Both the position numbers and the translations under genes were made by a program. 36,638 bases of DNA from Armatimonadota bacterium (GTDB taxonomy: Bacteria; Armatimonadota; Fimbriimonadia; Fimbriimonadales; GBS-DC), in contig JBBIJY010000025.1 in NCBI GenBank assembly GCA_037445735.1, positions 1 to 36,638 on the forward strand, written 5' to 3'. Under the pieces are notes generated by a model that was not told where the DNA came from, made no database searches, and worked only from the letters and a program-made list of their open reading frames with translations. This document shows positions 7,939-30,417 of the stretch, in pieces (position 1 is the stretch's first letter; every line of letters starts with the position of its first letter).

Positions 7939-8062
7939 TCCCTCTCCCCGCTGGGGAGAGGGAGAAACGAAGCCCCTCTCCCCGCCTGCGGGGGAGAGGA
8001 TACGGGTGAGGGGGTTTCTGAAGCCCCTCTCCCCGCTGGGGAGAGGGTACGGGTGAGGGGGC
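7939..8062. repeat. Cluster of three palindromic CCCTCTCCCCG..GGGGAGAGG repeats (REP-like)
   Basis: Three hairpin units in tandem; shares GAGAGGGTACGGGTGAGGGGG with the 2877-3009 element. Confidence 0.85.
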
Positions 8063-20285: not shown

Positions 20286-21200
20286 ATGAGTGTTCGCAAG
20301 GGCTTTACGCTGATCGAATTGCTGGTGGTGATCGCCATCATCGCCATTCTGGCGGCGATTCTGTTCCCCGTGTTCGCACAGGCGCGCGAGAAGGGACGGC
20401 AAACGGTGTGCTTGAGCAATCTGCGGCAGCTATCCGCAGCTGTCCTGGCATACAGCACCGACTATGATGGGTATTACCCACGGGGCGTCTACGGAGTTGG
20501 TCCTGTGGTCTATCACCTGCTTGATCTGATCCATCCCTATGTGAAAGGCCCGGACATCTACACCTGCCCCAGCTATCCTGGTCCAAATGGTGGCATGGAT
20601 TGGCAGGCGCGACTTGCCCATAGAGGCTATCAGTCGGCTCGCAACTTCCGCTACTTCGCCTATGTGCCCAACTACGGACTGCTGAACTTCGACTTCTGCC
20701 GATCGAATGTGGCTTACAAGCGATACAGCCCGCCGATGAGTGAATCTGCGGTACCACGCCCAGCAGAAACAATTGCCATTGTGGATGGTTACTGGTACTA
20801 CAACGCGGGCACCTACTGGTTTGAATACTGGTTCAAGATCGACATCTGGCCACGCCATACACTGGGGTCCAATCTCGTCTATGCGGATGGGCATGTGAAG
20901 TGGTCTTACCACCTGGGCATCCCAAACGGTGGGCGTCTCATAAGCCCCCCTGCCACCCGAACTTCTTGCCCGCTCCGCTCGCAAAATCAGTTCTACTATG
21001 GCTTCCACTACCCGCCCGGTTTCAATAACCCGCGGCGTGTGCCAAGAACCGAAGCCGAGTTCAATACCGTGAATCCTCATAATAACTGCTTTGGGGACTT
21101 TTTCGGGATTCCCGAAACCGCAATTGCCAATGTGCTGAACTGCCAGTGTGGTTCCGCCAACAACCTTTATCCACCCTGTCCGAACTCGGCGTACGAGTAA
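20286..21200 (+). CDS. Prepilin-type N-terminal cleavage/methylation protein with DUF1559 and H-X9-DG motif
   Basis: [58 protein letters not shown]. Confidence 0.93.
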
Positions 21201-26917: not shown

Positions 26918-27078
26918 GGCGTTCCTCCCTGCAATGGGCTGTCCCAGTGTGCATAGCACCTCCTGCGTCGCGCTTCCCGATTCGCCATGCCTGGCACGCT
27001 TCCTGCAAAAAGAGTGCCATCAGGCAGGAATGGCACCGCCCACAGGTGTATTCTGAATCAGCAGGAGGTCAAGCGCCA

Positions 27079-27882
27079 ATGCGAGACAGAGGCTTTACGC
27101 TGATTGAGCTGCTGGTGGTAATCGCCATTATTGCTATTCTGGCGGCGATTCTGTTCCCGGTGTTCGCGCAGGCGCGCGAAAAGGCGCGTCAAACCCAGTG
27201 CCTGAACAATCTGCGGCAGCTGGGCATGGCGTTCGAGATGTATCGCTCCGACTTTGAGGGACGCAATCCCGGTCCGGGCGACAGCGGACACTGCTGGGGC
27301 ACATGGAGCCAGCCCGACTGGCCATGGTGGATGACGGGCTTCATGTCGCGCTTCGAAGCGCAGTGGGTTCATTGCTACCCGGTGCTGCGCAATATCTACG
27401 ACCCCGACTCGCCTGTCAACCAGCTGTGGATACTGGCGGGGAATGTGAAGGCGGGCGTCATCTACCCCTATGTGAAGAACCCCGATGTGTACATCTGCCC
27501 GTCAGATCGGCGTGGGCGTGAGAAGCTGCTGAGCTACTCGATGAACGCGGTGGCGAGCTACATTCCCGAAACGGTGGTGGAGCGTCCAGGTCAGTTCGTG
27601 ATGCTCGTCGATGAGGCGGAGACGCTCAACGACGGCTACTTCTACGCGCTGGCACCCGGCGGCGGCACCGGGCGGTTCGTGGACTGCCCCTCGATCATGC
27701 ACAGCAACGGCGCGGTGTTCCTCTTCTTCGATGGGCATTCGAAGTGGGTGCGGGCGCGGCACACGCGCGAGCAGGCGCGCATCGATCGCTGCATCGACAC
27801 CGTGCCGAAGCATTACTTCTGCCCGAAAATCCCCTTCCCCGAATCGCGCCAGTATCAGGAAGGATGTCAGCGCGATAGCTGA
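27079..27882 (+). CDS. Prepilin-type N-terminal cleavage/methylation protein with DUF1559 and H-X9-DG motif
   Basis: [69 protein letters not shown]. Confidence 0.93.
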
Positions 27883-27886
27883 ATCA

Positions 27887-27914
27887 GAGGGGCACGGGTT
27901 ACCCCGCGCCCCTC
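27887..27914 (-). terminator. GC-rich hairpin with GNRA loop between convergent units
   Basis: Minus strand GAGGGGCGCGGG-GTAA-CCCGTGCCCCTC; only a weak U-tract. Confidence 0.6.
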
Positions 27915-28085
27915 ACAGGTGAAGGGAGTTTCGCGGATGTTGCAGGGCGCGACCACCGCGTCCCCACAGGCTCTTTCAGGCGATGAGCGGAGCCAGCTCC
28001 GCCACGCCTGGGAGCGCGTCCATCCCTGATCTACGCGTTTCAACGCCCACCCGCCCGTGCAAGCGGGTGCAACCACGCCTGTGAG
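27912..28085 (-). ncRNA. Unassigned multi-stem structured RNA candidate
   Basis: Closing stem CTCACAGG/CCTGTGAG, inner stem GTTGCA/TGCAAC, four internal hairpins; G-U pairs mostly favour the minus strand. Confidence 0.5.
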
Positions 28086-28103
28086 TATGGCGAGAAGGCA
28101 GTG

Positions 28104-28340
28104 TCAGGATGCCTTCGCCTTGCGGCGCTTGCGAACATCCTTCAGACCGAAGCGGAAGCGAGTGAACGCCTCCTCGATCTTGCCCTCCATCACCAGTTTC
28201 GCGAACTCCTTCGCGCCCTCCACCTTCGCCTGATTCGGCTTGCGTCTCCGTAGTGCCTTCACTGCATCTGCCATGTCGATCTCACCTGCCTTGAATGCCT
28301 TAAGGATACCCTCGATATAAGCCGTTCGCTCATCTGCCAT
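28104..28340 (-). CDS. Small Lys/Arg-rich hypothetical protein (78 aa)
   Basis: ATG at 28340 after a GGAGGTGA RBS, with a consensus promoter upstream; sequence MADERTAYIEGILKAFKAGEID...KDVRKRRKAKAS. Confidence 0.85.
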   Translation of the reverse strand: MADERTAYIEGILKAFKAGEIDMADAVKALRRRKPNQAKVEGAKEFAKLVMEGKIEEAFTRFRFGLKDVRKRRKAKAS

Positions 28341-28372
28341 AGATCGGTCACCTCCGCAGAATGGACAGCAAG

Positions 28373-28402
28373 ATTGTACCATGCGCATGACACCCATGTC
28401 AA
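28373..28402 (-). promoter_or_regulatory. Strong sigma70-type promoter with overlapping palindromes
   Basis: TTGACA-18 bp-TACAAT with TG extension; inverted repeat TGACA-N4-TGTCA (28388-28401) and palindrome CATGCGCATG (28380-28389). Confidence 0.8.
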
Positions 28403-28449
28403 GTGTTGCACGCACTTTTTGGCAGAAAATCGGTGCGATTCGCCCCGTT

Positions 28450-30417
28450 TCAGATATAGATTCGATAGGTGGGAACCTGAAAGAGCAGTGTAACAAGCGA
28501 CCAGAGCGACCCCATCGTGAAGTCGCCCAGGATCAGCCCCAGCGCGAAGGGCAGCCCGAACCGATGCGCCCGCAACCCGCCCAAACGCATCAGCAGCACC
28601 TTGAAGCACCAGCCCAGAAAGAAAGCGAACCAGAAGTAGTCCACCGCGTAGCTCACGCCCAGTGCGTAGCCTGTTGGGTGGAACGGGAAGCCCGCGAAGG
28701 CGTTGCGCAACGCCCGCAGCCCCAGCACCATCAGCGCACCGCCCGCCAGATAGTACCAGCGGTTCGGATTGCGGAACGGCTCCTCCACCAGCCATGTGTT
28801 CAACCGCCCGAACGACTCGTTGCCCACCCAGTTTTTGAAGCCGCGACACTTCGCCTCCGCGCCATACAGATAGGTCACATGCAGGTTCGCCCAGCACACA
28901 ATCGCGAACGCCAGCACCGACACAGTTAGAATCAGCAGCCCCATTCGCAGCGGCGCAATCCCATAACTCTGCCCCATGCGCAACGCCTCCAGCTGGTTCG
29001 GCATCGGATGGCACCGATAGCCGCGATTGAACCAGTAGAGCGACTGCAACACGGTCAGGTTCTCCACGCCCAGCCCGCGCAGGGTGAACACATCGAACAA
29101 AATCCGCTGCGGGTTCACAAAGTAGATTTCGTGGGGTGCGCCCAGCTCCGCCCGCACGCGCGTAATCGTGAGCGCCAGCAGGAAATAGATGCCAAAAAAG
29201 AGCACGGCGACCCAGCCATCCATGCGCAACAGCAGCATGTTATAGAGAACGAGGATGCCGACGCCGAGCGCCAGCCCCAGCCAGCTGAGGCGGTAGAGGA
29301 AGCGTTCCGGATGAGAAGCGCCCCACGCCAGCTGCCACGCCTCGCGGAAGGTGAAGCGCGCGCTCCACAGCAGCAAGATGCCCAGCATCAACCACGCACC
29401 TGCCGCCTGCTCGTTCAGAAACGGGAAGCCCCGATTCTCCGCCGCGTCCCAGCCCATCACCGCGCCAAACACCTGAAACAGCTTGCGCGCCATAAAGAAG
29501 AACCATGCTGAAAACGCCAGATCGGGCGGCATCAGATACGCCAGCCCAATCGCGAACGGATACGCCGAGATGCGAAACGAACCGACCGCGCTCCACGGGC
29601 GCGTCGTGAAGTAGGGACCTATGTCATACAGTTTAATCCATTCGATATGGGGCAGCGCAGGGAACAGCACATGCAGCCCGTTCAGCCCGCTGATGCTCAT
29701 CGCCGTGCCGAACCCCATCCACATCGCGCGCGACTGCCAGAACACGCCCGACGGCTCCACCATCGCCAGCGGCAACTGAATCAGCGGAAAAGTGAGCCGC
29801 TCATGCTGAGTCCACTGCTTCAGCACCAGAAAGTTCAGGCACAGGCACATCAGCACGAGCGTCAGAATCAGCCCCGCCCATAGCAGCAACGGCTTCACCC
29901 ACGCCATCAGCCAGTCCAGCCGATAGGGCAGCATACCGCCATCATAATAGGGGCGCAGGACGCGCTCGTCCCACACGAACAGCTCGCGCGGGATAAAGGC
30001 GAAGAATCGCTCGCGCCAGCCCGATTCAGGTGTGCCATAGCGCTGCGCGTGCCCGATGGCGCCGAACAGGTTCTGCAGCATATCATGCCCTGCGAACACC
30101 GCGCCCGTCACGATGATAATGTAGATAATCAGCAGCTCTACCGCCGACAGTCGCCACGCGGGTCGCCAGCGCGTCAGAGCCAGATTGAGCATCGCCACAA
30201 TGAACAGCGTGAACACGGGCGTGATAAAGATGGGCAGGCTGGTGACATCGAGGGTGTACCATCGCACCTCGATCACGGTGATCCAGAAGATGTTGAGGGT
30301 CATCAACAGCAGTCCGATCAGCAGGGCGCGTGGGCGCAGACGCGGCGGCTCCCGGCCCGCTTCTGACAACGGCGCCATCAGCACCTGCAACCTCTTCCCC
30401 AGCGGCACACGCGCCAT
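28450..30417 (-). CDS. Polytopic membrane protein, DUF6785/DUF6784-like (putative transporter)
   Basis: About 655 aa with many TM helices; KQWTQHERLTFPLIQLP, TRVRAELG, FPFHPTGY and PFALGLILGDF motifs. Confidence 0.78.
   Translation of the reverse strand: MARVPLGKRLQVLMAPLSEAGREPPRLRPRALLIGLLLMTLNIFWITVIEVRWYTLDVTSLPIFITPVFTLFIVAMLNLALTRWRPAWRLSAVELLIIYIIIVTGAVFAGHDMLQNLFGAIGHAQRYGTPESGWRERFFAFIPRELFVWDERVLRPYYDGGMLPYRLDWLMAWVKPLLLWAGLILTLVLMCLCLNFLVLKQWTQHERLTFPLIQLPLAMVEPSGVFWQSRAMWMGFGTAMSISGLNGLHVLFPALPHIEWIKLYDIGPYFTTRPWSAVGSFRISAYPFAIGLAYLMPPDLAFSAWFFFMARKLFQVFGAVMGWDAAENRGFPFLNEQAAGAWLMLGILLLWSARFTFREAWQLAWGASHPERFLYRLSWLGLALGVGILVLYNMLLLRMDGWVAVLFFGIYFLLALTITRVRAELGAPHEIYFVNPQRILFDVFTLRGLGVENLTVLQSLYWFNRGYRCHPMPNQLEALRMGQSYGIAPLRMGLLILTVSVLAFAIVCWANLHVTYLYGAEAKCRGFKNWVGNESFGRLNTWLVEEPFRNPNRWYYLAGGALMVLGLRALRNAFAGFPFHPTGYALGVSYAVDYFWFAFFLGWCFKVLLMRLGGLRAHRFGLPFALGLILGDFTMGSLWSLVTLLFQVPTYRIYI

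Follow-up and report, generated by a model that had tools for sequence, protein, structure and literature searches.

Does a hairpin-rich gap between two convergent genes encode one structured RNA? The question was raised by a stretch of DNA (the window) of 36,638 nt from an Armatimonadota bacterium of the order Fimbriimonadales (GenBank assembly GCA_037445735.1, contig JBBIJY010000025.1, positions 1 to 36,638 of the forward strand). An initial annotation, made from the sequence alone, had assigned positions 27912 to 28085 to a multibranched RNA structure of 174 nt with a possible pseudoknot, read as a novel noncoding RNA (ncRNA) or a functional 3' untranslated region (3' UTR). The gap itself, 221 nt long (27883 to 28103), sits between two convergent stop codons, as had been stated. 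[quoted passage not shown] No new RNA family would then be involved, and the apparent four-way junction would be a palindromic CRISPR repeat unit that landed in a hairpin-rich gene gap. Solitary CRISPR repeats have been described before: on phages and plasmids they serve as RNA anti-CRISPRs, and within cas operons as regulatory RNAs resembling CRISPR RNAs (crRNAs). The region is therefore a known kind of thing in an unusual setting: a housekeeping chromosome with seven copies, mostly precise insertions since the split from the sister species, all in sense orientation, with the matching cas genes not found. The elements of the gap are listed below; G000 is the genome carrying the window (59 contigs, 99.2% complete), and G002 is its sister species.

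28037 to 28073, minus strand: solitary CRISPR repeat of a 37-nt, type I-C-associated family (GTTGCAC..GTTGAAAC), with a hairpin from 28069 to 28048 and an 11-nt handle-like tail from 28047 to 28037.
28015 to 28036, minus strand: spacer-like 22 nt, neither repeat nor direct repeat, with no match anywhere searched.
28002 to 28072, no strand: 71-nt segment absent from G002 (a 71-column alignment gap), equally placeable at 28015 to 28085 owing to the direct repeats.
28002 to 28014, no strand: direct repeat DR1, CCACGCCTGGGAG on the plus strand, matching DR2 at 12 of 13 positions, 71 nt apart.
28073 to 28085, no strand: direct repeat DR2, CCACGCCTGTGAG, also the 3' arm of the outer stem pairing with 27912 to 27921.
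27977 to 28010, minus strand: hairpin A, 14 bp, also in G002 (-23.9 kcal/mol on the minus strand and -25.3 kcal/mol on the plus strand).
27942 to 27967, minus strand: hairpin B, also in G002 (columns 35 to 61 of the two-species alignment), with two pairs present only as G-U wobbles on the minus strand.
27887 to 27914, minus strand: GNRA-capped hairpin beside the stop codon of the DUF1559 gene (-24.1 kcal/mol, z score of -5.81, equaled by none of 200 shuffled sequences).

The repeat was identified by sequence comparison. At the gathering threshold, no Rfam family matched anything in the window. In E-value mode, however, the family CRISPR-DR9 matched positions 28037 to 28073 of the minus strand with 25.2 bits (E value of 0.0034), short of the gathering score of 45; this match overturned the earlier statement that the region carries no known signature. 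Array repeats of relatives corroborated this match. A blastn search with the gap found 37 to 40 nt matching CRISPR arrays with a period of 72 to 73 nt in five genomes of the same bacterial family, and in genome G009 an array of the 37-nt family lay between cas3 and cas1c-cas7c-cas8c-cas5c (cas5c being on contig C66), which makes it a type I-C locus. The repeat in the window reads GTTGCACCCGCTTGCACGGGCGGGTGGGCGTTGAAAC on the minus strand, and those in the arrays of relatives read GTTGCACCCGCCCCCACGGGCGGGTGAGGATTGAAAC or near variants of it, with 31 to 32 of 37 positions identical. The subthreshold Rfam match was then confirmed by a covariance model (R1) built from 16 array variants, which had been collected by a pattern fixing 29 positions. 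R1 matched the window copy over model positions 1 to 37 of 37 with 43.5 bits (E value of 1.5e-9), and the next match in the 36.6-kb window scored 10.9 bits. The hairpin of the repeat had a folding energy of -16.6 kcal/mol, with two G-U pairs in the stem. Its tail, GGCGTTGAAAC, agreed with the consensus AGGATTGAAAC at 8 of 11 positions, with the TTGAAAC ending in place.

The repeat stands alone. A CRISPR array consists of two or more regularly spaced repeats, and a search for a second repeat in the gap gave a best local score of 22 compared with 19.1 ± 2.8 for shuffled sequences, with a single R1 match above 11 bits in the window. A mini-array with a second, degenerate repeat was therefore dropped as a candidate. 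No partial repeat was found within about 100 bp either, so the repeat is solitary by the definition used for solitary repeat units (SRUs). An array-like measure is nevertheless present beside it: from the start of DR1 to the repeat there are 35 nt, the spacer length in the arrays of relatives, and 37 plus 35 gives 72 nt, or one array period. Searches for the origin of this spacer-like DNA were negative. Its 22-nt part had no match in viral contigs, positions 27990 to 28090 had none by blastn in phage and plasmid collections, and no copy with up to 2 mismatches was found in 28 family genomes. Compared with 218 fetched loci, the best alignment of the spacer-like 35-mer covered 26 of 35 positions and merely overlapped repeat starts. 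Orphan or degenerate arrays and mini-arrays have at least two repeats around a spacer, according to passages of a review on the subject (PMC8616872). Like them, the CRISPR sequence in the window lies far from cas genes and its repeat departs from the consensus. Unlike them, it has one repeat, and several solitary copies at separate chromosomal gene boundaries do not appear in those passages of the review (PMC8616872).

Counting one genome per species, the pattern of the 37-nt family was found at 14 loci in metagenome-assembled genome (MAG) records of Armatimonadota/Fimbriimonadales and once, as a solitary copy, in a Trueperaceae MAG. It was also found at at least 121 metagenome loci, with 15 variants among the matches listed, and at none in viral contigs. 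The Trueperaceae copy (L091, positions 301 to 337 of the locus, minus strand) belongs to another phylum; it overlaps the end of one open reading frame (ORF) and precedes the next by 18 nt, and further repeats are absent within 300 nt.

Next, the gap was compared with those of relatives. In a blastn search of 60 relatives, the flanks had a homologue in one genome, G002, from the same genus. When the two sequences were aligned, 71 nt of the window were absent from G002, between the two 13-nt direct repeats, and the direct-repeat sequence occurred once in G002 versus twice in the window. Two of the four hairpins claimed by the initial annotation fall wholly inside this segment. Because only 1 of 60 relatives has the gap, and there without the 71 nt, the 174 nt are not one conserved RNA. 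Their closed, multibranched look arises because the inserted unit duplicates the sequence that pairs with 27912 to 27921. The arm of hairpin A at 28002 to 28010 belongs to DR1, and the single copy in G002 must serve either hairpin A or the outer stem. Four DNA runs of a single study, and no RNA run, were listed as carrying the sequence. One of them may be the source of the window, and contigs of the other three had only the form seen in G002; in one of these contigs, 66 other letters separate 27933 from 28073. Downstream of the orthologues of the small gene that flanks the gap, where the initial annotation had suggested looking for homologues, only G002 had the gap, minus the 71 nt. The 25 other loci mostly had a plain GC hairpin with a T-run or other DNA; in other genera, the small gene was followed by a GC hairpin with a T-run and then by other genes. 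In G001, from the same genus, the small gene was followed by an element of the repetitive extragenic palindromic (REP) kind. A 22-mer of the conserved flank had no match in JGI metagenome contigs.

What the two species have in common is the hairpins outside the 71 nt. Among 36 predicted minus-strand pairs, 1 differed by a compensatory change and 5 by one-sided changes, all involving G-U, and none was broken. The hairpin at 27887 to 27914, the strongest single element of the gap, had one compensatory pair between GC and AU and one GU/GC change. It corresponds to the GNRA-capped minus-strand hairpin described before, which we found running from 27914 to 27887 with a GUAA loop, replaced by GCAA in G002. 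Hairpin B folded in G002 as a 12-bp stem. The G002 homologue (101 nt) had z scores of -2.95 on the plus strand and -4.30 on the minus strand, and the window sequence from which the 71-nt unit had been removed in silico had z scores of -3.77 and -2.19, respectively. A functional 3'-UTR role is possible for the hairpins common to both species.

Is the inserted repeat a single event? A blastn search of G000 with the gap returned only the gap itself and missed six further copies, because the copies differ from one another at many positions; repeat finding within the window gave nothing useful for the region. With R1, seven solitary copies were detected in G000, in agreement with nhmmer, and two or three in G002. 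Many dispersed copies had been named beforehand as a point against a discrete RNA. The 37-nt core does occur seven times, and the 174-nt unit as a whole is single copy. The six copies outside the window, all found with R1 (loci L226 to L230 and L232), are as follows.

C15, 7839 to 7875, sense with the nearest gene: solitary copy.
C13, 75798 to 75831, sense with the nearest gene: solitary copy.
C5, 46756 to 46792, sense with the nearest gene: solitary copy.
C11, 24584 to 24620, sense with the nearest gene: solitary copy.
C30, 11390 to 11425, sense with the nearest gene: solitary copy.
C14, 10019 to 10055, sense with the nearest gene: solitary copy.

The flanks of the seven copies were unrelated to one another. 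By simple ORF calling, all seven were in the sense orientation relative to the nearest gene and 0 to 30 nt from a gene boundary; five lay 0 to 30 nt past a codirectional stop codon or within the last codons, and four lay 3 to 57 nt ahead of a codirectional start. Each of the six other copies was then aligned with the orthologous site in G002, G001, and G003, so that filled and empty sites could be compared. Five of the six were absent from the matching site in G002, with flanks 84 to 96% identical between the species. For the three copies that could be tested with outgroups (C5:46756, C11:24584, and C30:11390), the sites in G002, G001, and G003 could be aligned but lacked the repeat. On this comparison of sequences, the C5, C11, and C30 repeats are shown to be insertions in the G000 lineage. 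The C13 and C15 copies were also absent from G002; in G001 and G003, similarity at the C15 site began just past the repeat, and the C13 copy had no alignable site. The C14 copy was common to G000 and G002 and had decayed differently in the two, and at the site of the best copy of G002, G000 carried a partial relic only. By analogy with the other copies, the window unit would be an insertion too.

The junctions of the insertions were not alike. The C5 copy was flanked by an 11-nt target duplication, GCCTGTAGCAG, which includes the upstream stop codon, and the window unit was flanked by the 13-nt one. The others had no duplication, with an overlap of 0 to 6 nt between target and repeat. At C11 and C30, the gain was 33 nt; the target gave the first three bases of the repeat and, at C11, also the last base. 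In the C15 copy (C15:7839-7878), the GAGGA of the repeat lies 10 nt 5' of the ATG of a 396-amino-acid ORF starting MKYVLIVPDGMADW, and this motif is absent at the empty site in G002. Judging from this spacing, the inserted C15 repeat may supply the ribosome-binding site of the next gene. Clean pairs of filled and empty sites of this kind are useful for studying the exit of repeats from arrays and their possible reuse by cells as RNA signals.

The favored reading of the locus has two layers, for which the following flanking features are needed.

26947 to 27882, plus strand: DUF1559 gene (prepilin-type N-methyl, H-X9-DG), an ORF with its stop codon at 27880 to 27882.
28104 to 28343, minus strand: small gene, an ORF of 78 amino acids (ATG at 28343).
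28373 to 28402, minus strand: sigma-70-like promoter (TTGACA, 18 nt, TACAAT, with TG), 11 of 12 matches, 5' of the small gene.
28089 to 28119, minus strand: stop-codon hairpin of the small gene, with a 9-nt loop (-14.0 kcal/mol, z score of -2.54).

The first layer, common to G000 and G002, would comprise the GC-rich hairpins A (27977 to 28010) and B (27942 to 27967) and the GNRA-capped hairpin (27887 to 27914) between the convergent genes. These hairpins are most likely the 3' UTR and the 3' end or terminator of the small-gene transcript, started at the promoter (28402 to 28373). This promoter, near consensus and with an extended -10 element, was the sole promoter-like site in positions 27600 to 28600 (1 found versus 0.2 expected). 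Transcription of the minus strand would run from there through the repeat, located 30 nt past the small-gene stop codon in the same orientation, and into the first-layer hairpins, which would end or protect the transcript. The hairpin at 27887 to 27914 probably comes last among the 3'-end or terminator hairpins of this transcript and may work in both directions. The second layer, confined to this lineage, would be the 71-nt insert, that is, the orphan repeat (28037 to 28073, minus strand) plus 35 nt of spacer-like DNA, with the 13-nt direct repeats at its edges. The insert would add two hairpins and duplicate the partner of 27912 to 27921, and most of the seven copies would likewise have been inserted after the split from the sister species. 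The repeat in the window is then most likely a passive passenger of the 3' UTR of the small gene, contributing at most one extra RNA hairpin.

Several observations weigh against this reading. The terminator role is something we infer, and a consensus scan of positions 27600 to 28600 gave no terminator-like site, the hairpins of the gap having no T-run. The plus strand folds better relative to shuffled sequences than the minus strand, and folding therefore does not reveal the transcribed strand. None of the array repeats listed was identical to the window copy; the best of the 15 metagenome variants agreed with it at 32 of 37 positions, and no donor was found. The polarity of the window indel lacks an outgroup: downstream of the small gene the DNA of G001 is different, and the contig of G003 breaks off within the gene. 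Instead of an insertion, G002 may have undergone a deletion between its counterparts of the two 13-nt repeats. Given the 59-contig, 99.2%-complete assembly, an unbinned element might also carry a type I-C cas locus. On the minus strand, the arrangement of the repeat, about 26 unpaired nt, and a hairpin is similar to that of type I-C crRNA-like RNAs in the literature. The passive reading may also say too little, since 20 solitary copies from G000 and sister genomes have kept the stem: 92.6% of 176 cells were paired, versus 42 to 55% in slid controls, and 5 of 9 pairs had compensatory changes, in an alignment that is fitted to R1 and in which covariation may be inherited from different donor arrays. 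Together with the orientation bias (7 of 7), this retention of the stem may be a sign of selection acting on the RNA or of some directional mechanism.

Is the repeat served by the CRISPR machinery of its host? A type I-B locus was found on contig C2 of G000, with Cas6 (at about 49.3 to 50.1 kb), Cas5b, Cas3, Cas4, Cas1b, and a Cas2-like ORF, and the arrays of G000 have unrelated 30-nt and 36-nt repeats, mostly at contig ends. Type I-C effectors were not found in G000 by tblastn with Cas5c, Cas8c, and Cas7c of G009. The Cas5c hidden Markov model (HMM) TIGR01876 matched in none of four genus genomes and in 4 of 5 positive controls, and the Cas7c HMM TIGR02589 matched in none of the four, with G009 positive. 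Most solitary copies end in 13 nt, TGAGGATTGAAAC, that nearly coincide with the 3' end of the host 30-nt repeat, TGAGGGATTGAAAC (reverse complement). Given these nearly identical 3' ends, it is conceivable, on sequence grounds, that the host type I-B Cas6 cleaves the solitary repeats.

Two side observations concern the 30-nt repeat of the host. A three-repeat array of it, at C45:10536-10673 of G000 (L096), has a first spacer of 21 nt that repeats 17 nt located just upstream (AAGGAATGGTTAAGCGC), and it may be a mini-array with a self-matching guide. At C41:14123-15163 (L099), the gene of a SAVED-domain protein directly adjoins a 30-nt-repeat array at a contig end.

Solitary repeats were not restricted to G000. 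A family-wide scan with R1 gave matches in 16 of 29 genomes, mostly in arrays. Ten isolated matches were fetched, and each was solitary within ±600 nt, adding solitary copies in 5 sister genomes. In the sister genera, several lay in the sense orientation between codirectional genes, two consisted of a leader plus one repeat, and one was antisense to its neighbors. A conserved array leader (..GGGTAAAATTTGTGCGTAGCTCTACC) with a single repeat after it was seen at L254 (G015:C132, repeat at 601 to 636) and L252 (G015:C185); L254 lies in midcontig, as an orphan leader plus one repeat. A bolder reading, which we hold tentatively and at low probability, is that the sense-oriented solitary type I-C repeats are a spreading RNA element of chromosomal gene boundaries in this bacterial family, repeatedly inserted without type I-C cas genes. 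On this reading, the element would retain its hairpin, settle a few bases past stop codons or ahead of start codons, and in one case provide the ribosome-binding site. If so, a CRISPR repeat would have been recruited as a signal for mRNA ends or processing, one that the host type I-B Cas6 might cut given the near-identical 3' tails. Alternatively, an undescribed route would move repeat-sized DNA out of arrays, and the 71-nt unit of the window would be a fresh record of such an event. We found no description in the literature of several solitary repeats at chromosomal gene boundaries without matching cas genes; the supplements of two SRU papers, which this search did not cover, may list chromosomal cases.

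Could the solitary repeats instead be a small mobile element, akin to REP elements or to miniature inverted-repeat transposable elements, moved by a transposase or by the Cas1-Cas2 integrase, with the window as a recent hop? The seven copies with unrelated flanks, the five of six other copies that are absent from G002, the three insertions shown with two outgroups, and the solitary copies in 5 sister genomes would all fit, and the 11-nt (C5) and 13-nt (window) flanking duplications resemble target-site duplications. The host also has possible movers, namely a Cas1b-Cas2-Cas4 adaptation module and one Y1-transposase gene. However, the junctions are not uniform, since duplications occur in two cases and elsewhere there is none or a small overlap. 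Duplications made by an integrase are expected to have the length of the repeat. With such mixed junctions, neither a single transposase nor the repeat-length duplications of an integrase fit. The copies are divergent from one another even though their flanks are 84 to 96% identical between species, which argues against recent copying from one master, and the window insert has 22 extra nt. The Y1-transposase gene was single copy in all 5 genomes tested and had no solitary repeats flanking it, and a Y1 (REP-type) transposase was accordingly dropped as the mover. We consider a mobile element of this kind unlikely.

Two known processes were compared with the insertions. REP elements are palindromic units of about 35 to 40 nt at gene ends and between cistrons, transcribed in mRNA and associated with Y1 transposases. 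The solitary repeats are like them in being palindromic and scattered at gene boundaries, in a genome with a single-copy Y1-transposase gene; they differ in being true CRISPR repeats that form arrays by cas genes in relatives, and in number (7 copies, versus 242 REP-like ones). In off-target (ectopic) integration by Cas1-Cas2, a spacer is inserted outside arrays with a target duplication of repeat length and with a preference for palindromic sites. Here too, short DNA lies outside arrays with a target duplication, and the window insertion abuts hairpin A. In contrast to ectopic integration, what was inserted is the repeat itself, with duplications of 0 to 13 nt.

The REP-like family used for this comparison has a core of CCCTCTCCCC, 2 to 8 nt, and GGGGAGAGGG, which TACGGGTGAGGGG often follows; G000 contains 242 copies of the core. 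It occurs in the window at 2913 to 2999 and 7940 to 8062, many of its copies are at contig ends, and one follows the small-gene orthologue of G001.

In another alternative, the unit would function as a crRNA-like RNA; it would be cotranscribed with the small gene, and Cas5c of a type I-C system outside the assembly or the host type I-B Cas6 would cut it within the repeat. Its 3' part would be loaded into Cascade as a guide that represses a promoter, or it would soak up Cas proteins. The minus-strand layout resembles that of the published type I-C crRNA-like RNAs (crlRNAs), which, in the parts of that report used here, consist of a repeat-like hairpin, an 11-nt handle, a spacer-like stretch, and a 3' hairpin with its loop marking the 3' end, at 48 to 50 nt (bioRxiv 10.1101/2024.12.27.630466). 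In the window, the repeat (28073 to 28037) is followed by about 26 unpaired nt and the hairpin at 28010 to 27977, and about 53 nt separate the handle (28047) from the hairpin loop (near 27995). The repeat belongs to the same class, which in crlRNAs, as far as the same parts of the report go, is processed 3' of the hairpin to leave the 11-nt handle. The same strand has a strong promoter upstream, solitary copies retain the hairpin, and the 13-nt ends of most copies nearly match the host 30-nt repeat. Against these points, the 3' hairpin is present in G002 without the repeat and therefore predates it, so the layout may be accidental. The handle of the window deviates from the family consensus at 3 of 11 positions, and the unit is absent from the sister species.

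The genomic context does not favor a crRNA-like RNA either. Type I-C crlRNAs derived from SRUs repress the promoters of defense genes from units inside cas operons, between cas3 and cas5c, and their targets are matches of a 16-bp type with a TTC or TTA protospacer-adjacent motif (PAM) in a nearby promoter, as described in parts of the report (bioRxiv 10.1101/2024.12.27.630466). Unlike these, the window unit is neither in nor near a cas operon, and no Cascade genes or target for it were found; type I-C genes were not detected in G000 or in three other genus genomes, with positive controls working. In a PAM-aware scan of G000 for self-targets, seeds beside a TTN PAM all stayed below 10 pairing positions; the best seeds reached 10 without the PAM, which is the chance level, and no target was found in the 28 family genomes. 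We therefore regard a working crRNA-like RNA as quite unlikely.

SRUs were compared in the same way. SRUs and the RNA anti-CRISPRs (Racr) derived from them are located on viruses, proviruses, and plasmids, usually just after their own promoter, and in 83% of GTDB prophage cases they agree with the host in cas subtype; one type I-C candidate lies 11 nt past a small gene, in one transcript (these points are from sections of Camara-Wilpert et al. 2023, PMC10651486). The window repeat is like them in being a single full-length repeat outside an array and away from cas genes, 30 nt past a small gene on the same strand. It differs from them in lying in a housekeeping chromosome, with no match in phage, plasmid, or viral collections; in having no promoter of its own in the gap; and in a host of type I-B, in which matching type I-C genes were not found. 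The small gene is a conserved gene of the bacterial family, with homologues in 26 of 28 family genomes and no match in Pfam or NCBIfam, and not an anti-CRISPR candidate.

The reading from which the analysis started, that the 174 nt are one novel structured ncRNA or 3'-UTR domain with a four-way junction and a pseudoknot, appears very unlikely. Folding energy is its best support. On the plus strand, positions 27912 to 28085 had a minimum free energy (MFE) of -88.3 kcal/mol compared with -66.2 ± 4.2 kcal/mol for 200 dinucleotide-shuffled sequences, none of which was as stable (z score of -5.23); the fold is thus much more stable than the shuffled controls suggested in the initial annotation. The minus strand had a z score of -3.40. 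Among 60 random 174-nt windows of G000, the mean z score was -0.68 (standard deviation of 1.44), one was at -5 or lower, and the lowest MFE was -86.1 kcal/mol, so the MFE of the region lies below all of them. The lack of an Rfam family at the gathering threshold and the hairpins that keep pairing between the two species also speak for this reading. The ends of the region do pair as had been proposed, with 10 bp between 27912 to 27921 and 28076 to 28085 in the MFE structure. Three of the four proposed hairpins were present in it (27977 to 28010, 28011 to 28041, and 28048 to 28069), and the first (27945 to 27964) was displaced by pairing within 27932 to 27960.

The features that would make these hairpins one domain did not hold up. 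The inner stem (27939 to 27944 with 28068 to 28073) and the 5-bp pseudoknot (27923 to 27927 with 28023 to 28027) consist of complementary letters and are absent from both the MFE and the centroid structures. Positions 27939 to 27943 pair locally with 27949 to 27953, the length of the pseudoknot is that expected by chance, and its 3' partner lies within the 71 nt missing from the only homologue. That homologue, one among 60 relatives, lacks two of the hairpins along with the pseudoknot partner, the DNA present in the window alone is a CRISPR repeat unit, and the flank 22-mer had no match in the JGI contigs. What survives of the earlier proposal is a noncoding, hairpin-rich region 3' of the small gene; one conserved multibranched domain of 174 nt does not. 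A mere chance resemblance to a CRISPR repeat in GC-rich DNA, for which the subthreshold Rfam score (25.2 versus 45 bits) and a genome rich in GC palindromes (the 242-copy REP-like family) could be cited, was rejected as next to impossible on the end-to-end R1 match, the 31 to 32 of 37 positions identical to array repeats in the same bacterial family, and the correctly placed hairpin and TTGAAAC tail.

The wider surroundings are those of a housekeeping chromosome. Genes of the 36.6-kb window include those for leucyl-tRNA synthetase, menaquinone synthesis, and isocitrate dehydrogenase, and no cas, phage, or transposon genes were found among them. The protein of the DUF1559 gene matched N_methyl (2.2e-10) and SBP_bac_10/DUF1559 (3.2e-12) in Pfam, and in NCBIfam it had pseudopilin-type matches and the HX9DG domain. 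Finally, a 131-nt direct repeat with 86% identity was observed between 20301 to 20431 and 27091 to 27221, where two paralogous DUF1559-type genes encode their N-terminal prepilin (N-methyl) segments.

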